This document shows positions 7,892 to 25,372 of a stretch of DNA of 32,000 bases, one piece after another. The stretch comes from Erysipelotrichaceae bacterium. Its GTDB lineage: Bacteria > Bacillota_I > Bacilli_A > Erysipelotrichales > Coprobacillaceae. Both the position numbers and the translations under genes were made by a program. The stretch covers positions 115,312 to 147,311 of the forward strand of contig JAQVDW010000003.1 of NCBI GenBank assembly GCA_028698185.1. Direction: 5' to 3'. Below the pieces are notes generated by a model. The model made no database searches. It was not told where the DNA came from and saw nothing but the letters and a program-made list of their open reading frames with translations. Every line of letters starts with the position of its first letter. Position 1 is the stretch's first letter.

Positions 7892-7913
7892 TATTTCCAA
7901 ATTCAATATCTTA

Positions 7914-7935
7914 GATGCCATTGGCATCTTTTTTT
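7914..7935 (+). terminator. Rho-independent terminator after ilvA
   Basis: GATGCC (7914-7919) pairs with GGCATC (7923-7928) around loop ATT, followed by T7 (7929-7935). Confidence 0.75.
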
Positions 7936-8153: not shown

Positions 8154-10523
8154 ATGAACAAAAACAGGAAGCACCAACCAATTATTGCCTTTCTAATATT
8201 ACAAATTATAATTTATCTCTCAATCAATAACGTCCAGGGCATAAGCGCGTTGAGCATCCTGGAAAATGTTCCCTATCCTTTCTATCCGGCTATAAATGCC
8301 AACATGTACCAGGTTGAGGGCGACATCGGCTTCAGTGTGAATCCGTCAAAGACGCCCCAGCCATCGGGCACAATCACTTCTCAATATCAAAGCGCGGATG
8401 CGAATCTGATCAAGGCTCTTTATTATGGCTATTCGGGTCCGGGCAATCTGATGAGTGACCTGTCGCTCGCCCAACAGAAAACCTACACCCATCTTTTGGC
8501 CAGTTACATCTATTCCATGGACATGGGAGGGCTGACTTTCTATACGCTGCAAAGCTATTTCAACTGCAACTTGATTGACTATTACAACCAGCTTCCTTAT
8601 TTGCAGGATCCCAACCATTACGAATTGGCATTCACAAACGAGCGGCTGGATTTTGTGAGCGACGGGCTGGTCCAAAGGTCGGATTCGACCCGGCTGGTCG
8701 CCACTGATGGTACGGGCGGATATTTCGATCTGCCGGATGGTCTGACAATCGTTAATGAAACAACCGGTATTGTTACAACGTCGCAGCGCTGTCATGTCCA
8801 AGCTCAGGATTTGATCCATTTCGAAGCGGCAGCCAATTATCTTGGCGAGTTTGCGACTGTGGATTTCACCCTGGCAAGCAATGTCTTCGATTACCGGGTC
8901 AATCTTGCCAAAGTGCAAGGTACGGTCGATCCGGCAAACCCCGTCAACGACGGGTACCAGGCAGTCGCGAGTCTGCTGAAGATTCCAAAAGAGATCCATA
9001 CATCTTTGGATCTGGAATTTCAGTTCAAACCCAAGCTGTCAATCAAAGCGCAGTCGGATAAGGGAGATGCGATCACCGGTCAGGCAATCAGTGTCACCGG
9101 ACCAGGTGCATACGCGAATTCGAGCCATACTGATGGAAACGGAATATTGGAACTGGTGAATCTCGAACCGGGAACCTACTTCATCACCCCGGCCGCCACA
9201 AACTTCCCTTACAGGGAAAACACCGGAGTCTACAGCGTGACTGTCAACTATCGCCAGAGTCAGGAAATGACAATAATATTTGACGAACTGACCCAGGCAA
9301 CCGCAACCTATCTGTTGAATGGTGAAAATCCGCCGTTGTTATCAGAAAGTTTCAATATCAATGATGACTACCAGACCAGAGGATTCGCTGATTTTATGCT
9401 CGATGGTTATGACCCAACCGGTATCGCGATCGTTAAAGATGGTCTACCGATTTTGGAATCAAAAGAAGCGGACGAGGTGATCAACGGCATTTTGATTGGC
9501 AAAAGTGATTTTTCCAATTGCCTTGATTATGTGGAAGGAGGATATCGACTGACCATCGATCTAAAAGCGGATCTGTCGGCTATTGCCATCCCGGTGTTTA
9601 GCGGCCGCAACGGCATAATCAACATCGCCGACGTGAATGAGGCCAATCTCAAAGAAATGATTTATGATGCGACCAAAGTAAAATGCATGTATGAAGACAT
9701 TGATGAAACAGCGGCATTGACCGTCAAAGACCTGAACATCGATTATTTCAACAGGCCGGGAATAGCGGTTGTCGAGTTTAACTTTTTGAGCCCCGCCGGT
9801 CTGAATTTCAAAAAAAGTTATAATGTGCTCGTTGTCGGGGCGCAAGATGGAGACGGGGCCAATCCGGTAAGGTTCATCGATAAGGACAATTTCAATAAAC
9901 TTGGCACCGGTTTTTTTGGCACAGTTCAGGTGGCGAACAGTTTGCTTGAGGATAGCCTCTTTAAAGAACAACCGGTGTTATCCTGCAGTCTAAAAAGTGA
10001 CAATCTTCAAATGATCAAGGAAGATTATCGGGACATTGAAAACTTCGACCGATACTATCATGAAGCCATCGAAACTGGCATGAGTGCAAGCCTGCCGCCG
10101 ATCGAAACAGCTCAAATAGAAGCGTCATTTGATGAGGGGCGGGCAATATCAATATATGCAAAAGGGGTGATGCTGGAAGAAAGCGAAATCTATCTCGATA
10201 TATCAAATTATCGCAACGGACAAGTCGAGTGCCTGCTTGCCCTAAAAGAAACTTATTCGGGTTCGTTAAGAATAAATGGCTACCAGAACAAGACAAGTAT
10301 GGCGATGGCGACAATTGAAGACATTGCCGTGCAACGGTTCAACGGTGTGTCCAAATATCCCGAACCCGTGATTTATGTACAAGACAACAGGCTTCTTCGT
10401 GGGCGCGATTATCAGTTAAGCTACGCTGATAATGTCCAGGCCGGAGAAGCGACCATCATTGTGATGGGAATTAACAGGTATCAAGGTGAACTTACAGTGA
10501 ATTTTAAAATAGAAGGAGAATAA
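8154..10523 (+). CDS. secreted multidomain adhesin-like protein (thioester-domain-like N-terminal region, CnaB/SpaA-type prealbumin-fold domain, C-terminal Ig-like module); no LPXTG or TM anchor
   Basis: The Sec signal peptide is MNKNRKHQPIIAFLILQIIIYLSINNVQG. Residues ~294-377 (TGQAISVTGPG...HTDGNGILELVNLEPGTYFITPAATNFPY) match the CnaB/SpaA-like pattern. The C terminus YQLSYADNVQAGEATIIVMGINRYQGELTVNFKI is the common Gram-positive Ig-like repeat pattern. The protein ends ...KIEGE with no sorting signal. Confidence 0.85.
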   Translation: MNKNRKHQPIIAFLILQIIIYLSINNVQGISALSILENVPYPFYPAINANMYQVEGDIGFSVNPSKTPQPSGTITSQYQSADANLIKALYYGYSGPGNLMSDLSLAQQKTYTHLLASYIYSMDMGGLTFYTLQSYFNCNLIDYYNQLPYLQDPNHYELAFTNERLDFVSDGLVQRSDSTRLVATDGTGGYFDLPDGLTIVNETTGIVTTSQRCHVQAQDLIHFEAAANYLGEFATVDFTLASNVFDYRVNLAKVQGTVDPANPVNDGYQAVASLLKIPKEIHTSLDLEFQFKPKLSIKAQSDKGDAITGQAISVTGPGAYANSSHTDGNGILELVNLEPGTYFITPAATNFPYRENTGVYSVTVNYRQSQEMTIIFDELTQATATYLLNGENPPLLSESFNINDDYQTRGFADFMLDGYDPTGIAIVKDGLPILESKEADEVINGILIGKSDFSNCLDYVEGGYRLTIDLKADLSAIAIPVFSGRNGIINIADVNEANLKEMIYDATKVKCMYEDIDETAALTVKDLNIDYFNRPGIAVVEFNFLSPAGLNFKKSYNVLVVGAQDGDGANPVRFIDKDNFNKLGTGFFGTVQVANSLLEDSLFKEQPVLSCSLKSDNLQMIKEDYRDIENFDRYYHEAIETGMSASLPPIETAQIEASFDEGRAISIYAKGVMLEESEIYLDISNYRNGQVECLLALKETYSGSLRINGYQNKTSMAMATIEDIAVQRFNGVSKYPEPVIYVQDNRLLRGRDYQLSYADNVQAGEATIIVMGINRYQGELTVNFKIEGE

Positions 10524-10524
10524 C

Positions 10525-10680
10525 ATGAAAGATTTTTTAGGTGAATACGGATTGGTAGTGGTGACAGCTTTAGTGATTCTGGCGTTTGTCGTAATTGGTC
10601 CCGAAGTTGGGAACCAGGTCGGTGATGCGATAAAGGCTCAAGTGACAAATATCACAACCCAAACAGCTCCTGGAGTCTGA
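10525..10680 (+). CDS. Flp-like pilin candidate, 51 aa (MKDFLGEYGLVVVTALVILAFVVIGPEVGNQVGDAIKAQVTNITTQTAPGV)
   Basis: This ORF is not in the ORF track and was found by reading. GAAGGAG (10512-10518) lies 6 nt upstream, the ATG is 1 nt after the adhesin stop, and the stop overlaps the ATPase start (TGATG). The EYGL motif followed by a hydrophobic helix is as in Flp/Fap pilins (xxxxEYGLI). Confidence 0.7.
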   Translation: MKDFLGEYGLVVVTALVILAFVVIGPEVGNQVGDAIKAQVTNITTQTAPGV

Positions 10681-11684
10681 TGGAACTGATAGATGAGGTG
10701 ATTCCCCGAGAGATGTTCGGGGAATTGTCCGTTTATTTGGATGACGATAATATCACCGATATCAATTACAATGGTCAGACCGTTTGGGTGGACCATATTT
10801 GCAAGGGCCGATATCAGGCTGACATCGTCTTGAGCGAGGAGTTCATCGATGCGTTCATTATGAAGATAAAAAACAGTGTCTCGAAGAATTTCAATATCGA
10901 ACACAATGTGCTTGAGGCTGAGACGGCGCAGTTGAGAATCTCGATTATCCACCACTCCGTGGCGAAGACCGGAACAGCCATCTCGATCAGGAAGACACCG
11001 CCAAAACAAAGGCTCAATGAACTTCTGATGCTTGAAACCGGCTACTGCGATCAGGCCATTATCGATTTTTTAAGCAAATGCGTCAAATCATCATGCAATA
11101 TCATAATCGCCGGAACTACTGGTTCGGGTAAAACAGAATTGTTGAAATGGCTCACGAATTTCATTGAAGCCAACGAGAAAGTCATCACTATCGAAGACAA
11201 TCTTGAGATCCATTATCGCCAGATAAATCCGGGCAAAGATTGTATCGAGCTGAAGGTCGACGAGAAACGGTTCTCCTATTCCAAAGCGATAAAGACATCG
11301 TTGCGCCAGCTGCCCCAATGGATCATTCTTTCCGAGGCACGCTCAGTCGAAGTCAAGTATTTGCTCGAAACATTTTCAACAGGGCACAACGGGATAACGA
11401 CAATTCATTGTGATGACGTCAGAAAGATACCTAAAAGAATAAAAAATATGATTCAGGATGACATAAGCGAGGAGGTATTGTTCGATGATATTTTCAGTTT
11501 CATCGATATTGGCATATTGATTTCCAAACATATCGTGAACAACGAAATCAAGCGTCGCATCGAGCAGATATGCGTCTACGATTTTGTTGACAAAAAAAGG
11601 GAGACCGTAATGATTTACGAAAGGGACCGCATTCCCCTGCACGGGGATTCTCCGAAGCTGAAACGGAAATTTGAAGGTCTGTAG
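10680..11684 (+). CDS. TadA/CpaF/VirB11-family secretion ATPase
   Basis: Motifs present: Walker A AGTTGSGKT (11109-11135), ITIEDNLEI (Asp box), WIILSEAR (Walker B-like) and TGHNGITTIH (His box of the TadA/VirB11 type rather than GspE TGHLV). ISIRKTPP matches the conserved tIRKf segment. Confidence 0.9.
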   Translation: MELIDEVIPREMFGELSVYLDDDNITDINYNGQTVWVDHICKGRYQADIVLSEEFIDAFIMKIKNSVSKNFNIEHNVLEAETAQLRISIIHHSVAKTGTAISIRKTPPKQRLNELLMLETGYCDQAIIDFLSKCVKSSCNIIIAGTTGSGKTELLKWLTNFIEANEKVITIEDNLEIHYRQINPGKDCIELKVDEKRFSYSKAIKTSLRQLPQWIILSEARSVEVKYLLETFSTGHNGITTIHCDDVRKIPKRIKNMIQDDISEEVLFDDIFSFIDIGILISKHIVNNEIKRRIEQICVYDFVDKKRETVMIYERDRIPLHGDSPKLKRKFEGL

Positions 11685-11692
11685 GGGGGACA

Positions 11693-13156
11693 ATGAAAAC
11701 AAAGATCAAACGTTATTTCAAAGTTCAAAGCGAGATTGAACGTTACGGTTACAGTTTTTCAATGAGGCGGTTCTATCAGGTAGTTGCATTTTCTATTATC
11801 CTGATAGTTGTCATCGGAATAACGTTCAACCTGAGCCGGGGCTATCTTGCTTGCGTGATTCTTGTCATGGTCGCATCCCTGCCCCAGATAATCACAGTCA
11901 CCTACAGGGGGCTTGATTCGCAACAGCGGTTCGCCGATTTGAACAATTATCTTGAACAACTGGTTATGTCATTCAAGCGACGGGGCAATTTGATTACGGC
12001 CTTGCAGGAGACACGGCAGATATTTGCCCCGGGTGCGATGGCTGTGATTCTTGACCGGGCGATAGGGCATATCAATGAGGCGAATGGCAGTGAGGCCTAT
12101 CGCCAGGGGCTGGGTATGATCGAAGAAAAATACGGGTGCTCACGGATCAGAAAAGTCCACGATTTCCTGTATGATGTTGAGAAATTGGGCGGCGATTACG
12201 GATCGGTCCTGAACCTGATCGACCAGGAGCGGTTGCTGTGGCAGGAACGGGTCTATCTTGTTGCCGCAGGAAAGAAGCAAATTGAAAAGACCATCTACCT
12301 GTCCTGTGTTATGGCAACAATAATCGCGGCGGTGATGGGTCTTATTTTACCTGATGAACTTAATGTGTTCGCCCTTGATTATCTACAGCTTCTCACGGCC
12401 GGATACCTGGTGGCGATAATCGTCATTGTGACTGTTGTCCACTCGTTGCTTTCTGGTGGTTATTTTGAGGAACTCCGGGTTCTCGATCAACATGAGTATG
12501 AAAAATATGTCCGGTTGCACAGTCAAAGGGGACTCTTGAACCGGAATGACATCATATCGCTCTTTATTGTGGCCGTGGGTCTGCTTTTGCTGGCTGTAGG
12601 AAGGCAGGTTGTCGCAGCTGGTATTTTAGCCATGGTTTTTGTCCTGATCATAATAAAAATCGGCGGTCGCAAAAAAAGATGTCAGCGGGTATTGCAATCA
12701 AACCTTTCCATTGCTTTCATGTACTGGCTTCTTGATATCTCGCTCTTGCTGCAAAACAACAATATCCATATGGCCATCAAACAATCCATAGAAAAAGCTC
12801 CGGCAATGTTGCAAAATGATTTGAAAAAGCTGGTTGATGACCTGGAAAAGTCACCAAACTCGATAACACCATATCAGAATTTTCTGGGCGGTTTCGATTT
12901 GCCGGATGTCAAATCGGTCATGCGCTCATTTTACGCTCTTGACCGGAATGGCTCCGGAAGTAACGGTAAGTTTTTAAACGACCTGCTTGAGCGGAATAAT
13001 CATCTGGTCGACAAGACGGAAAAACTGGCGTTGGAAAATCGGCTGGCTTATATAAATGTGCTTCAATACTTGCCCATGCTTCTGGCGACATTCAAGCTGC
13101 TTGGCGATCTGACAGGATTCATGATGGTTCTTATTATAAAGATGAAAGGGGGTTAA
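11693..13156 (+). CDS. polytopic membrane protein, apparent TadB-TadC (T2SS-F-like) fusion platform protein
   Basis: It consists of two similar halves. Each has N-terminal TM helices, a ~110-aa soluble helical segment (e.g. LEQLVMSFKRRGNLITALQE...; MAIKQSIEKAPAMLQNDLKKLV...) and C-terminal TM helices. Its position directly after the ATPase fits a platform protein. The family assignment is an inference. Confidence 0.7.
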   Translation: MKTKIKRYFKVQSEIERYGYSFSMRRFYQVVAFSIILIVVIGITFNLSRGYLACVILVMVASLPQIITVTYRGLDSQQRFADLNNYLEQLVMSFKRRGNLITALQETRQIFAPGAMAVILDRAIGHINEANGSEAYRQGLGMIEEKYGCSRIRKVHDFLYDVEKLGGDYGSVLNLIDQERLLWQERVYLVAAGKKQIEKTIYLSCVMATIIAAVMGLILPDELNVFALDYLQLLTAGYLVAIIVIVTVVHSLLSGGYFEELRVLDQHEYEKYVRLHSQRGLLNRNDIISLFIVAVGLLLLAVGRQVVAAGILAMVFVLIIIKIGGRKKRCQRVLQSNLSIAFMYWLLDISLLLQNNNIHMAIKQSIEKAPAMLQNDLKKLVDDLEKSPNSITPYQNFLGGFDLPDVKSVMRSFYALDRNGSGSNGKFLNDLLERNNHLVDKTEKLALENRLAYINVLQYLPMLLATFKLLGDLTGFMMVLIIKMKGG

Positions 13157-13161
13157 GTCTG

Positions 13162-13260
13162 ATGGTTGAAATTATTGGCGAATACGGACAAGTTGTGGTT
13201 TTAGGCGTTATTAGTCTGATTTTGATAGGCGCATTTAGTTATCTGGCTTCAATAGTATGA
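13162..13260 (+). CDS. Flp-like mini-pilin candidate, 32 aa (MVEIIGEYGQVVVLGVISLILIGAFSYLASIV)
   Basis: Not in the ORF track. AAGGGGG lies 10 nt upstream. The GEYGQ motif plus hydrophobic helix is paralogous to 10525-10680. The stop overlaps the next start (ATGA). Confidence 0.6.
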   Translation: MVEIIGEYGQVVVLGVISLILIGAFSYLASIV

Positions 13261-13400
13261 AGGCGGTGATAAGCGAGTACGGATTGACTGCAGTCGGCGT
13301 GTTGGTGACATTTGTGTTGTTACAGGTGATTGGCCAGCTACTGGGCGGCAATCTGCTCTATGAGTTGGTGCGCATCAAGGCGGACTGCATGTTTTTATGA
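13257..13400 (+). CDS. Flp-like pilin candidate, 47 aa (MKAVISEYGLTAVGVLVTFVLLQVIGQLLGGNLLYELVRIKADCMFL)
   Basis: Not in the ORF track. ATGA overlaps occur at both ends (13257-13260 and 13397-13400). It has the SEYGL motif plus a hydrophobic helix. Confidence 0.6.
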   Translation: MKAVISEYGLTAVGVLVTFVLLQVIGQLLGGNLLYELVRIKADCMFL

Positions 13401-13855
13401 AAGCAACGATTGAAAACTACGGACAGGTACTGGTGGGTGCCATCCTTGTTGTGCTTTGCCTGGGATTCTTGAATTTTGCCTTAGCTGCCTCTTATCTACC
13501 ATCAATCAGAAGCGTACCGGTTCCCTGGCGAAGTCCAAGTGAACTTCTTGATTTCGTCCCATTAGATATCAAGTCAAATCCGGGTCTGGTTGATCCGGTA
13601 GATCTGATCGGCCAGGACACATTCGGTTTCAATGATTTTTCATATCTAAAAACCCAAGGCACCGCCATTTACTACCGGGACGTCGATTATAATCGAGTCA
13701 TGGTTCAAAGCGATTTTGTCAATGGGGATAGTCTCGATTATTCAAATGTGGATTTTCATGACTACCATAGTTTCATTGACAAAGTCAGGATAACAGCCAT
13801 CATCAATAACCAGGTACTGGTCAAAGAAGGTATGGTAATAATAGAGGAGGACTAG
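13397..13855 (+). CDS. pseudopilin-like protein, 152 aa, with a Flp-type N terminus (MKATIENYGQVLVGAILVVLCLGF...)
   Basis: It shares the N-terminal register of the small pilins (Y at residue 8, G at 9) and continues into a ~110-aa globular part. It is translationally coupled on both sides. Confidence 0.7.
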   Translation: MKATIENYGQVLVGAILVVLCLGFLNFALAASYLPSIRSVPVPWRSPSELLDFVPLDIKSNPGLVDPVDLIGQDTFGFNDFSYLKTQGTAIYYRDVDYNRVMVQSDFVNGDSLDYSNVDFHDYHSFIDKVRITAIINNQVLVKEGMVIIEED

Positions 13856-14173
13856 ATGAAAAGCGCAATTGAGTTATATCTTTCGATTTTTGTGATTGCC
13901 ATATTCGGGGTCCTATGCGCAAACATGGTTGCCATGAACATTGAAGCCAACAATGTCAGGAGTTATCATAACGCTTGCATCCAAGTGATTGAGAACAGCG
14001 GCCACAACCAGGATGTCATAAACCAACTCATCGAAGAATCTCCCTATGATCTTGCTGTGGAACGGAATCCAAGCAACGGGGTGATCACAAGCCAGGTGCG
14101 AGTCGGTTATAATTACACAATCCCGCTTTTGAACTTCAGCGAGTACTATTGTATCGAGGGGGTCGCACGGTGA
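13856..14173 (+). CDS. TadE-like pseudopilin candidate, 105 aa
   Basis: GAGGAGG (13844-13850) precedes an ATG that abuts the upstream stop. MKSAIELYLSIFVIAIFGVL keeps E6 and Y8 of the shared register. The small beta-rich C-terminal part (VRVGYNYTIPLL) is reminiscent of TadE/TadF. Confidence 0.6.
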   Translation: MKSAIELYLSIFVIAIFGVLCANMVAMNIEANNVRSYHNACIQVIENSGHNQDVINQLIEESPYDLAVERNPSNGVITSQVRVGYNYTIPLLNFSEYYCIEGVAR

Positions 14174-14721
14174 AACAGGCGGTGCTGGCGTTTGGGATGC
14201 TTGCCATGGCAATCGGAGCAATAGTGGTCATACTTGCTTCAAACTTTCAAGTCAACAAGGAGACCATGTTTGAAAAGGCTGTGAGCGACAGCCTGTACAA
14301 GAGCCTCGAAGATATGTGTTTTTATAACCCGGATATGAGTTATGAGCAGATCTTCAATGGCTATATGACAAATCTGGCAATCAATCTCAATGGCACAAAC
14401 AAGCTCAAGGTGGACGTGGTTACAATTGACAGGAATTTTGGGATTATGGATACCATTAACGAACTTACCTACAGCGACTTTTTCAATAATGAAAAGACGA
14501 TTACCATAAGGAAGACGATCATCCACAATCCGGAAGTAAAAAATGATTTCTATCAAGTCGACTTCGTGGTTGATGATGCTTTCAAAGGTGCCCTTTTTGT
14601 GAAAATCGGGACCACAGTCGCCCAGGCGATTGCGGATTTTGGCTGCAAGGCGGATTGGAATCTAAACGGCCTTGATCCTGACGAACCAATCACTGATGAC
14701 CTGACTATATACGCAAATTAA
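14170..14721 (+). CDS. membrane-anchored pseudopilin/TadF-like candidate, about 184 aa
   Basis: I preferred the GTG at 14170 because it gives a GTGA overlap with the upstream stop and GAGGGGG lies 7 nt upstream. The ORF-track start at 14149 is an alternative. N-terminal hydrophobic helix: AVLAFGMLAMAIGAIVVILA. Confidence 0.6.
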   Translation: MKQAVLAFGMLAMAIGAIVVILASNFQVNKETMFEKAVSDSLYKSLEDMCFYNPDMSYEQIFNGYMTNLAINLNGTNKLKVDVVTIDRNFGIMDTINELTYSDFFNNEKTITIRKTIIHNPEVKNDFYQVDFVVDDAFKGALFVKIGTTVAQAIADFGCKADWNLNGLDPDEPITDDLTIYAN

Positions 14722-14743
14722 TCCGATTGTATCGGATTTTTTT
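14720..14743 (+). terminator. Rho-independent terminator ending the pilus-like operon
   Basis: AATCCGAT (14720-14727) pairs with ATCGGATT (14731-14738) around loop TGT, with a T-run to 14743. It overlaps the stop codon. Confidence 0.85.
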
Positions 14744-14792
14744 GCTTTATCCGGAATCTGAAAAAATGGTTAATAATTTTACGAACTTTTCC

Positions 14793-14821
14793 TTGATTTC
14801 TAAAATCAAATTGTGTATAAT
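14793..14821 (+). promoter_or_regulatory. candidate sigma-A promoter for the carAB leader
   Basis: TTGATT (14793-14798), a 17-nt spacer ending in TGTG (extended -10), then TATAAT (14816-14821). Confidence 0.65.
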
Positions 14822-14846
14822 CTTTCAAAGAAAAGGAGTGATTGTG

Positions 14847-14921
14847 ATGCCAAAACTGACAGCTAAAGTGAATATTTGTGTGTCACAAGGCGAATTTTTT
14901 ATCGTTGGTTTTTGTTGTTAA
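14847..14921 (+). CDS. candidate 24-aa leader peptide (MPKLTAKVNICVSQGEFFIVGFCC) in the carAB leader
   Basis: GGAG (14835-14838) sits 8 nt before the ATG at 14847. The stop TAA (14919-14921) abuts the first base of the terminator stem. The last 30 nt are U-rich. Confidence 0.4.
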   Translation: MPKLTAKVNICVSQGEFFIVGFCC

Positions 14922-14951
14922 CACGTTACCCTATAGGTGACGTGTTTTTTT
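14920..14951 (+). terminator. intrinsic terminator inside the carAB leader (attenuator)
   Basis: ACACGTTACC (14921-14930) pairs with GGTGACGTGT (14936-14945) with one G-U pair, around loop CTATA, followed by T6-7 (14946-14951). It lies 17 nt upstream of the carA ATG and before its RBS AAGGAGG (14957-14963). Confidence 0.75.
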
Positions 14952-14968
14952 AAAATAAGGAGGATTTT

Positions 14969-23663: not shown

Positions 23664-23754
23664 ACAAACCGTTTATACGGTTTCTAAAAAGATGGTTTTC
23701 CTTTAAAAGATTTGGATTTCCGCTATAATGGAGGTAGAAGGTGAGGAGAGAAAA

Positions 23755-24408
23755 ATGAAAAATTACCAATCTGCCAATGACAAGTCAATAATCGAAGTTA
23801 AGAAGTATCTGATGAACAATCTGTCCGATGAACAGTTGAATAATTACGCATGTCTGATAAATTCTTCATACAGCGTGAAGGATCTGATGAAGAATATAAA
23901 TCGCAACCCTAAGGTCCAACTGGCCATATTCTCGTTGATCAAATGTCGCTTGAAAGCGACGGAACGGTTTGATGAACTGGAGGAGGAACTGGTATATCTA
24001 AATCTCCTGATCGATCACAATTACAAACCGGCCCTTGATTACAAGTATTCATTGACATCGATCCTGATCAACAATTTTGAGTTCGATGAGAGCATGGTCA
24101 TGATCATCCGCCATCTTGTCAACTACAGGATCATGATAATCAGCGACCTGGTCGACTATTTTGGAAAACGCCAAAAATTGGATGAGAACCAAATTGAAAA
24201 GATCAAGGTTAAGGTATACTTGATTGAAGGTGAATCAAGCAGGGCATTCAAGACAATTGACCGGGTACGGATCGACAGCATGGGCGAGTGGAGCAAAACG
24301 ATGGAAAGTCTCTCGCCGCTACGCTATGCTAGGGTCTTGAAAAGACAACAAAAAAATAGAAATGACAGGTGCGTGAACTATGTTAGTGAGAATGTATTAC
24401 ATCGTTAA
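23755..24408 (+). CDS. hypothetical protein, 217 aa, no recognisable family
   Basis: GGTGAGGAGAG lies 5 nt before the ATG at 23755 (the ORF-track start at 23728 lacks an RBS). The product is predicted soluble and helix-rich with a basic C-terminal tail (RYARVLKRQQKNRNDR). The 3' end overlaps the WYL regulator gene by 29 nt. Confidence 0.7.
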   Translation: MKNYQSANDKSIIEVKKYLMNNLSDEQLNNYACLINSSYSVKDLMKNINRNPKVQLAIFSLIKCRLKATERFDELEEELVYLNLLIDHNYKPALDYKYSLTSILINNFEFDESMVMIIRHLVNYRIMIISDLVDYFGKRQKLDENQIEKIKVKVYLIEGESSRAFKTIDRVRIDSMGEWSKTMESLSPLRYARVLKRQQKNRNDRCVNYVSENVLHR

Positions 24409-25372
24409 GATAATCAAGGAAAACATGGAACCATTGAATGGTCAGTCCATAAAAGAAGCTCTCGAGCGTTACAACATCAGCGTCGATGTCAAGACCGTCC
24501 AAAAATCGATAATCAAGATTAATGAAATGACGCGTGTTGCTTTAGGGTACGATTTGGTTTATAATTTAAAAAAGAGGGGCTATTGCATTAAAAACAACTA
24601 TTTCAGCGATGGCCAGATCCAGTTTTTATTGGATGTCGTATTGTCGAATGACAATCTTTCAAAGGATTCGAAGACCCAGCTTGAGTCAAAACTGAAGTTC
24701 CTGGCCAGCGAAAACCAGCTTGCCGGTATGAATTTCACCAAGAAGGCCAGCGGCAATCTTGATTACGATCTGCTTTTGAATCTTTCAACCATAATCAAGG
24801 CAATCAACAACAAGAAAAACATCATCTTCAAATACATTACATATGATGTGGTTGATAACAAGCTGAATATTGTGGAAAACAAAGGGGGTAATTGCACTGT
24901 AAATGGAAACAATTATTACATGATTTCTCCTTATCGCCTGGTAATGGACAACTCAAATTACTATGTGCTGGGCCACTATAATCAAAGGTCCGATTCATTG
25001 AGTGTTTATCGCGTGGACCGGATGCGTCTGGTTCAGACTTACAAAGGGCGATTTGTCAAGGAGCCCAAGGAACAAATAATCGACAATTATTTGAAAAACA
25101 ATGTCAACATGTACATTTCTGCTTCATCGAGCAGCCTGGAATTCATTTTCACCAATAAGGTTATCCGGGAAATCGGAGCCAAGTTTGGCGATGACCTGTG
25201 GGTTGAAAAAGTCGGTGAAAAGTATCGGGGCATAATTCATGATGTCAACATCAACGATGGTCTGATCGGATGGATCATGATGCTAAACAGCGAGATTGAG
25301 ATTGTAAAACCCGCCAGCCTTAAACAACAGATAAGAGAAAAGGTCGCTATCTTGAAGAATACCTACAAATAA
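24380..25372 (+). CDS. WYL-domain transcriptional regulator (N-terminal wHTH, WYL, C-terminal WCX-like)
   Basis: The HTH region is RMYYIVKIIKEN..LNGQSIKEALERYNISVDVKTVQKSIIKINE. The WYL core is IIFKYITYD...YMISPYRLVMDNSNYYVLGHYNQRSDSLSVYRVDRMRLV (YYVLG replaces WYLxG, and the YRVDRM motif is present). The alternative start ATG 24425 would delete helix 1, so 24380 is preferred. Confidence 0.8.
   Translation: MLVRMYYIVKIIKENMEPLNGQSIKEALERYNISVDVKTVQKSIIKINEMTRVALGYDLVYNLKKRGYCIKNNYFSDGQIQFLLDVVLSNDNLSKDSKTQLESKLKFLASENQLAGMNFTKKASGNLDYDLLLNLSTIIKAINNKKNIIFKYITYDVVDNKLNIVENKGGNCTVNGNNYYMISPYRLVMDNSNYYVLGHYNQRSDSLSVYRVDRMRLVQTYKGRFVKEPKEQIIDNYLKNNVNMYISASSSSLEFIFTNKVIREIGAKFGDDLWVEKVGEKYRGIIHDVNINDGLIGWIMMLNSEIEIVKPASLKQQIREKVAILKNTYK

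Follow-up and report, generated by a model that had tools for sequence, protein, structure and literature searches.

The window analysed here is a 32,000-nucleotide stretch of a contig from an Erysipelotrichaceae bacterium (JAQVDW010000003.1 of assembly GCA_028698185.1, forward-strand positions 115,312 to 147,311), and its subject is a single compact plus-strand operon at window positions 8154-14721 that encodes a T2SSE-family ATPase, a candidate membrane platform protein and six proteins sharing one pilin-like N-terminal register. The operon is bounded by two terminator-like hairpins, one at the end of the upstream gene (7913-7929) and one at its own 3′ boundary (14720-14738). Its first gene (8154-10523) encodes a secreted 789-residue adhesin with a thioester domain (Pfam TED_2, E = 3e-12), and the second (10525-10680) a 51-residue Flp-like protein, MKDFLGEYG..., without a leader, which is the candidate major pilin; it has orthologues, and its start is preceded by a GGAG ribosome-binding site. 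These are followed by the 334-residue ATPase (10680-11684; Pfam T2SSE, E = 1.3e-27), of the TadA/CpaF-VirB11-archaeal branch, and by a 487-residue polytopic protein (11693-13156) whose family-level T2SSF matches and hhalign results suggest a two-repeat platform remotely related to T2SSF proteins. Downstream lie genes for a 32-residue protein (13162-13260, MVEIIGEYG...) of a 32-37-residue class kept in most loci, a 47-residue protein (13257-13400, MKAVISEYG...) of a conserved 44-55-residue class, a 152-residue candidate minor pilin with an extracellular domain (13397-13855, MKATIENYG...) and orthologues only in the five closest sequences, a 105-residue protein (13856-14173, MKSAIELY...) of a separate universal family found in 87 of the 89 loci compared below, and a 183-residue protein (14170-14721, VKQAVLAFG..., with a GTG start and a GTGA overlap) whose family occurs in 84 of the 89. 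The genes are tightly coupled translationally. Public annotation has the products as hypothetical throughout, and NCBI lists the identical platform protein as a hypothetical protein of an Erysipelotrichaceae metagenome-assembled genome.

An earlier note made from the letters of the window had described five near-leaderless Flp-type pilins in this operon. The open reading frames at 10525, 13162, 13257, 13397 and 13856 are present with exactly the N termini it gave, with Tyr always at residue 8 and Glu at residue 7 (three proteins) or 6 (two proteins). Every start adjoins or overlaps the stop before it, with 10525 placed 1 nt past a TAA, ATGA overlaps at 13257 and 13397, and 13856 directly against a TAG. 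There is likewise no usable upstream start, as in-frame stops are found 0-11 codons 5′ of four of the five (4 codons upstream for 10525), and in the fifth, 13162, the upstream frame is open yet contains no ATG, GTG or TTG. The description as one family of five needs two corrections. The register is real, but the 105-residue protein at 13856 has a family of its own, and a sixth member had been overlooked, the 183-residue protein starting with GTG at 14170, with its aromatic residue at 8 and Gly at 9. The register common to the six products is M1-[K/R]2-x-x-hydrophobic5-x-[E]7-[Y/F]8-[G]9. The recurrent DNA motif GARTACGGA occurs in the window at 10543, 13180 and 13275 only, where 0.24 matches are expected by chance and none of 100 shuffles gave three; it is simply the E-Y-G codons. 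The 32-residue member is, as had been claimed, essentially the N-terminal helix alone.

We compared 89 sequences, comprising the window, 8 contigs reached through proteins and 80 genome loci; some of these are one locus fetched twice (for example L002 and L009), and the independent loci are somewhat fewer. The carriers are mostly Lachnospiraceae (Roseburia, Robinsoniella, Lactonifactor, Muricomes, Faecalicatena, Lachnobacterium and Blautia), with some Ruminococcus and Coprobacillaceae, and gene order is retained over platform identities of 24% to 90%. The core conserved across loci consists of the ATPase, the platform, a family of ~111 residues, a family of ~197 residues and several small E-Y-G proteins; Pfam and NCBIfam recognised no component of it at the curated cut-off but the ATPase. 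When E-[YF]-[GA] followed by a hydrophobic segment was sought on the plus strand, a start codon stood exactly six codons before the Glu in 160 of 170 matches, with the consensus M-K-[E/A/T]-[F/I/V]-[L/I/M]-[E/G]-E-Y-G, and the exceptions were unrelated genes (glutamate synthase, pstC) or rare variants two residues longer. With the pattern relaxed to a start codon, Y/F/H at 8, G/A at 9 and a hydrophobic tail, there were 285 matches in 0.65 Mb of operon zones versus 30 in 2.49 Mb elsewhere, a ~36-fold enrichment; this relaxed pattern is present in 88 of the 89 sequences, usually three or four times per operon.

A Shine-Dalgarno-like core lies 5-18 nt upstream of 220 of 268 unique starts (82%) versus 15.6% of random control ATGs, an in-frame stop lies within 10 codons upstream of 149 of the 268, and 170 have no alternative upstream start whatever. 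In the definition used in the field, a class III leader is hydrophilic, 6-26 residues long and ends in Gly or Ala, and its cleavage by TadV leaves Glu at +5 (PMC4471445, PMC10191384). The start positions, ribosome-binding sites and upstream stops together exclude a normal leader of 6-26 residues ending in Gly, and the window family lacks the class III signal peptide of Flp/Fap pilins. Some gene callers do extend orthologues upstream (P0014 at 73 residues; also P0015, L043, L054 and L060), and we rejected these extensions, which are conserved neither in sequence nor in presence. The leaderlessness proposed from the window is kept in 88 of 89 loci, and the N-terminal observation is confirmed as real and as a family trait. 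One locus, L058 8419-13166 of Lachnospiraceae bacterium ZAX-1, is a divergent variant that may shed light on the evolution of the motif: it has the ATPase, the platform and both universal families together with small proteins without the Y-G register (for example MNLSTEQIVLIAIG…).

Flp-type identity, also claimed earlier, is supported by the 51-63-residue class encoded upstream of the ATPase, the profile of which matches two solved mature Tad pilins over nearly the whole chain (Caulobacter crescentus PilA 8u1k_A, E = 2.8e-4; Flp pilin 8u2b_A, E = 3e-3). Profile positions 7-48 correspond to chain residues 5-44, which bears out the predicted two-residue offset, in which Glu5/Tyr6 would be obtained by loss of two residues; Glu7-Tyr8-Gly9 of the primary product aligns to mature Glu5-Tyr6-Gly7 of the solved pilins. 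The 51-residue protein also has the features of the Flp motif, being a small single-helix protein with Glu-Tyr in its N-terminal hydrophobic segment, and in some loci (L034, L020) its class is present in two or three tandem copies, as flp genes are. Among the other small proteins, the conserved class of 44-55 residues often ends in Cys. Its 46-47-residue E-Y-G members in L020-L042 have a conserved terminal Cys (…FSQSIC, …FAQGIC, …FIESAC), the window protein at 13257-13400 has a Cys four residues from its C-terminal end, and through this Cys a disulfide or some other covalent bond may form. In the 105-residue family Met1 and Tyr8 are near-invariant and the Glu is variable. The AlphaFold2 model of the window member, with a predicted local distance difference test score (pLDDT) of 88.3, has a 46-residue helix (2-47), a second helix (52-61) and a three-stranded sheet, a predicted pilin-like "lollipop" architecture that we regard as a resemblance rather than demonstrated membership; Pfam TadE gives no match to this family.

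The ATPase belongs to the T2SSE extension-ATPase family by its Pfam match, and its best solved relatives, afGspE (2oap, 1.3e-24), CpaF (1.8e-18), VirB11 (1.2e-15) and FlaI (2.5e-14), place it on the Tad/archaeal/VirB11 branch. The platform is far more divergent. A word-indexed search found 9 relatives where an exhaustive profile search found 933 representatives at E <= 0.001. The window protein itself has no Pfam match, its profile found nothing useful among PDB sequences and a plasmid search with a homologue gave no match. Within the platform family, 10 of 52 members match Pfam T2SSF at E <= 0.1 and no other family is matched by more than 4; one member, P0120, reaches the T2SSF gathering score. 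Within the family alignment one half matches the other (hhalign, E = 2e-4 across 191 columns), indicating an internal duplication, and the AlphaFold2 model (pLDDT 74.6) has weak Foldseek matches to the cytoplasmic domains of EpsF, OutF and PilC. On these sequence and model comparisons we treat it as a remote two-repeat GspF/PilC-type protein. A single two-repeat platform of ~490-510 residues is present in all 89 loci in place of the separate TadB and TadC of Tad systems.

No A24-type prepilin peptidase gene was found in the 32-kb window. Over the 89 loci with 10 kb on either side, a crude motif screen found no hydrophobic open reading frame of 120-350 residues with G-x-G-D-x-K, and a clustering screen found no conserved polytopic open reading frame besides the platform, so that the absence of a peptidase gene from the operon, as first reported for the window, holds in all 89 loci by these two screens. 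The sole noteworthy matches to G-x-G-D-x-[KR], in a soluble loop of the platform, are unconserved and were judged coincidental. A peptidase missing from the locus is ordinary by itself; the unusual feature is a set of substrates with nothing to cleave.

The residues before the motif form a segment of fixed length across paralogues and very divergent orthologues; cleaved leaders vary from 6 to 26 residues (PMC4471445). Positions 2 and 6, which lie one helical turn apart, show reciprocal charges in counts that ignore phylogeny: when position 2 is Lys or Arg, position 6 is Asp or Glu in 116 sequences and Lys or Arg in 1, and when position 2 is Asp or Glu, position 6 is Lys or Arg in 41 of 81. Counting the α-amine, residues 1-9 carry a net charge centred on 0, and in this they are like the cleaved Flp N terminus (amine plus Glu5) and unlike a basic leader. 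The fixed length, the alignment with the mature Tad N terminus and the 2/6 charge swap all speak for residues 1-9 as part of the functional protein rather than of a disposable leader.

We lean towards the view that the operon encodes a Tad-like type IV filament machine for single-membrane Firmicutes in which the pilin-like subunits are translated at mature length. In the arrangement that we propose, the short N terminus, with its α-amine and Lys2, would stay cytoplasmic while the hydrophobic helix spans the membrane, and the CpaF-like ATPase and two-repeat platform would draw the subunits out of the membrane and build them into a thin filament. The 51-residue Flp-like protein would be the major subunit, and the 32-, 47-, 152-, 105- and 183-residue proteins would serve as minor or priming subunits. 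The secreted thioester adhesin, or giant proteins with leucine-rich repeats (LRR) in other species, would be adhesive cargo or tip. Since these subunits have no basic leader, no prepilin peptidase step would be needed, and the near-electroneutral residues 1-9, with their 2/6 charge pair, would replace the cleaved N terminus that pairs with Glu5 in ordinary pilins. A charge-neutral N terminus would in this way provide a rationale for extraction from the membrane without cleavage.

Several observations weigh against this proposal. About a third of the members have His, Gln or Thr at the position of Glu7 and keep Tyr8-Gly9, so that an assembly logic based on the Glu does not hold throughout the family, and the Glu is less fundamental than the aromatic-Gly pair and its register. 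The reciprocal charges lose some force through the neglect of phylogeny. Translation of the pilin and ATPase genes is coupled in the window, an unusual arrangement if the pilin is a major subunit made in large amounts. Single sequences fall below the Pfam Flp_Fap threshold (PF04964; 13.3 bits for the 51-residue protein with a cut-off of 32.2, and a best E of 0.019 among 22 pilin-class relatives), although the class profile matches mature Tad pilins in register, and the relatives show scattered weak sub-threshold matches to Flp1_like and Arch_flagellin, the latter in 5 of 22. Foldseek found no significant match for the model of the 105-residue protein and no pilin among its top matches, and the platform matches, at probabilities of 0.6-0.87 and E of about 1, are weak. 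Finally, the peptidase screen was crude and local, reaching 10 kb either side of the loci, and there are MSH loci without a peptidase gene of their own, prepilin peptidases being often unlinked and shared between systems (PMC6668835).

This last point also speaks for the idea that the pilins are still processed by a peptidase encoded elsewhere, which we consider unlikely. An unknown aminopeptidase or dipeptidase might remove Met-Lys, or the proteins might be cut after Gly6 (MKDFLG/EYG) or, by a host peptidase of the ComC/PilD type, after the nearly invariant Gly/Ala9. The Gly9 site is formally a Gly(-1) before a hydrophobic stretch, the residue after E-Y/F being Gly in 148 and Ala in 12 of 160 members (a residue that was itself a search criterion), but E7Y8G9 aligns to mature residues of solved Tad pilins and a cut after Gly9 would discard the sole conserved motif. 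Position 6 is Gly in the clade of the window, where a cut would leave a type IVa-like leader of six residues, but only 25 of 160 members have Gly6 and the commonest residue there is Glu. Lys at position 2 also counts against processing, being unfavourable to methionine aminopeptidase. Any such leader would moreover be neutral or acidic rather than basic, and the fixed 8-residue register with its 2/6 charge swap argues that the residues are structural. Somewhat less probable again, in our judgement, is that the small proteins, instead of building a filament, reside in the membrane and partner the ATPase and platform in a short device, like a pseudopilus or bindosome, that exports, positions or anchors the adhesin. 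Large secreted surface proteins do always adjoin the system (the thioester adhesin in the window, LRR_5-type proteins of 1.4-2.4 thousand residues in 19 loci), the tight translational coupling would suit such a device, the 32-37-residue members barely exceed a membrane helix, and the ATPase also resembles the bindosome ATPase BasE. Against this, the 51-63-residue class is collinear with bona fide Tad filament subunits and its tandem copies in some loci are like those of flp genes, and the adhesins have ordinary Sec signals and a single-membrane cell needs no special exporter.

That the register is an artefact of annotation or chance, with the real starts upstream or the small open reading frames not genes at all, has some basis in the databases, as NCBI omits the 32-residue open reading frame and calls the 47-residue one at 44 residues, and some callers extend orthologues, to 73 residues in P0014. 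The open reading frames, starts and ribosome-binding sites are nevertheless conserved in 88 of 89 loci, the pattern is strongly enriched in operon zones and the upstream extensions are not conserved, and the comparative data leave this reading effectively refuted and extremely improbable. Two further assignments were considered and rejected. A conjugative type IV secretion system, which the VirB11-like ATPase might suggest, fails for want of VirB4, VirB6 and VirB2, none of which is in the window; relaxase or coupling-protein genes are neighbours in 5 of 89 sequences only, and no VirB4-type ATPase is visible within 10 kb of those copies. For a SpoIIIA sporulation channel, no SpoIIIA model is among the NCBIfam matches of any operon protein.

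Returning to the Tad-like filament machine with subunits made at mature length, the closest comparison is with Tad/Flp systems such as CpaF-PilA of C. crescentus and Flp1-TadA-TadV of Aggregatibacter. Both have a small single-helix E-Y-G pilin with a similar C-terminal half, a CpaF-like ATPase and several minor pilin-like genes 3′ of the platform gene, and tandem flp-like copies and a TadZ-like gene (21 loci, judged by eye only) are possible further likenesses. The present system differs in having no leader peptide, no Gly at -1, no TadV in the locus and no RcpA, RcpB or RcpC, and in its motif, which stands at residues 7-9 of the primary product whereas that of Tad pilins stands at residues 5-7 of the cleaved product. 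A single two-repeat platform of ~500 residues moreover replaces the TadB/TadC pair used by the Tad machinery (PMC10191384).

Other filament systems share different parts of this plan. Archaeal Epd-like systems are the proposed ancestors of Tad, and the system resembles these and archaeal type IV pili in an ATPase closest to archaeal afGspE, in one two-repeat platform, in a Glu that is not universally required and in the weak Arch_flagellin matches of 5 of 22 pilins. Archaeal pilins, however, keep class III signal peptides cut by PibD, FlaK or EppA, and here the host is bacterial and the best match of the pilin is a bacterial Flp. The Com pilus (ComGA/GB/GC-GG with ComC) is likewise encoded by a minimal, secretin-less Firmicutes operon with a single ATPase, platform and major pilin and four or five minor pilins; ComG pilins, in contrast, have canonical leaders and depend on ComC, the ATPase and platform are of the PilB/PilC branch and the function is DNA uptake. 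Imam et al. (2011) described Gram-positive tad-like loci of Clostridia without a findable prepilin-motif protein, including those of the Lachnospiraceae C. bolteae and C. sp. L2-50, with genes only distantly related to other tad genes (PMC3244431). By their description alone, those loci differ from ours in that tadV, tadZ and rcpC homologues are reported and no pilin candidates proposed (PMC3244431). Full-text searches of the literature, with most subscription journals outside their coverage, turned up no account of Flp or type IV pilins without a leader. As far as sequence goes, the system would be a Tad-like member of the type IV filament superfamily that lacks both the leader and the peptidase step.

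A more ambitious possibility, which we offer tentatively and somewhat doubt, is that prepilin peptidase has been given up by an entire lineage of type IV filaments, one that is common among Lachnospiraceae of the gut and has spread to Erysipelotrichales. Its pilins would be made in mature form, with a charge-balanced N terminus (the 2/6 pair plus Glu7) replacing cleavage, and on some integrative mobile elements, behind relaxase and coupling-protein genes, the system could act as a pilus for mating or adhesion, equipped with a covalently binding thioester adhesin or an LRR adhesin. If the subunits are indeed assembled unprocessed, this would break a rule considered universal for the filament superfamily. 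The leading idea of why cleavage is needed is that removal of the leader takes away cytoplasmic charge and so lets the subunit leave the membrane, and a natural family that assembles without cleavage would test the question directly. It would also offer a minimal system for reconstitution, with one ATPase, one platform and no peptidase, and reveal an adhesion apparatus that has gone unannotated in abundant commensals of the gut such as Roseburia, Robinsoniella, Lactonifactor and Muricomes. Finders that rely on the leader, on a pilin profile or on a platform profile would probably miss it.

The function of the operon is probably adhesion, to judge from the surface proteins encoded beside the machinery. 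The 789-residue adhesin of the window has a Sec-type signal peptide, no LPXTG and no C-terminal membrane or wall anchor, and its gene adjoins the pilin gene translationally. Its orthologues carry TED_2 and TEDa_beta domains, and the TED_2 class is confined to the clade of the window (5 of 89 sequences). In the 19 other loci with a surface protein of 1.4-2.4 thousand residues, it follows the operon and is of the LRR_5 type in the copy scanned.

In three contexts covering 5 of the 89 sequences, genes for a relaxase, a VirD4/TraG-type coupling protein, DUF3801, ArdC and an integrase lie directly upstream of the system (L004-L006, 1-9800; L021, 700-7500; L036, 600-8600). In L021 genes for a giant surface protein and a non-specific nuclease, and an ImpB/UmuC gene, come after the system. 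In such positions the system could be carried as cargo by a mobilisable element, or be a pilus for mating or adhesion. In a 72% identical relative (L002/L009, Coprobacillaceae metagenome-assembled genome OY776328.1) the operon is interrupted at 8746-10001 and 12205-13699: 1.25 kb without a called gene separates the ATPase and platform, and a resolvase fragment with ~1 kb lies between the 155- and 116-residue genes, which suggests decay or mobile-element insertion. In 21 loci (L025 8130-8702, L051 301-1008, L066 8067-8684 and 18 others) a gene upstream of that for the ATPase encodes a protein of ~206 residues starting MKIAFWGGEHGCGTTSNMF, which is absent from the window. Inspection by eye suggests a ParA/TadZ-type protein whose Walker A motif is deviant, and Pfam and NCBIfam give it no match.

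Rfam recognises no family in the operon. A hairpin of 14 bp with a U-rich tract (10697-10729, plus strand, about -21 kcal/mol) sits 17 nt into the ATPase open reading frame, right after the candidate major pilin gene. It is retained in L001 and L002, with compensatory changes in L001 and z-scores of -3.3 to -5.4, and may be a partial terminator that lifts the adhesin and pilin transcript above the machinery genes. A terminator after the pilin gene was rejected as a general feature, since it is limited to the clade of the window and was not found in L004 or L030.

The operon lies among housekeeping genes, with gltX, asnB, a haloacid dehalogenase-type (HAD) hydrolase and a pyridoxal phosphate (PLP) enzyme upstream and carA/carB downstream, in DNA of uniform GC content (~0.44). 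The interval between the operon and carA (14727-14968) has no Rfam family at the gathering threshold. It is conserved and contains a small open reading frame and, just before carA, a terminator-like hairpin (14920-14946) that looks like a pyrimidine-responsive attenuator. Further downstream in the window (23728-25372), a 226-residue protein without a Pfam match is followed by an overlapping 330-residue WYL-domain protein, the pair being placed between an aminotransferase gene and the pst phosphate-transport operon.

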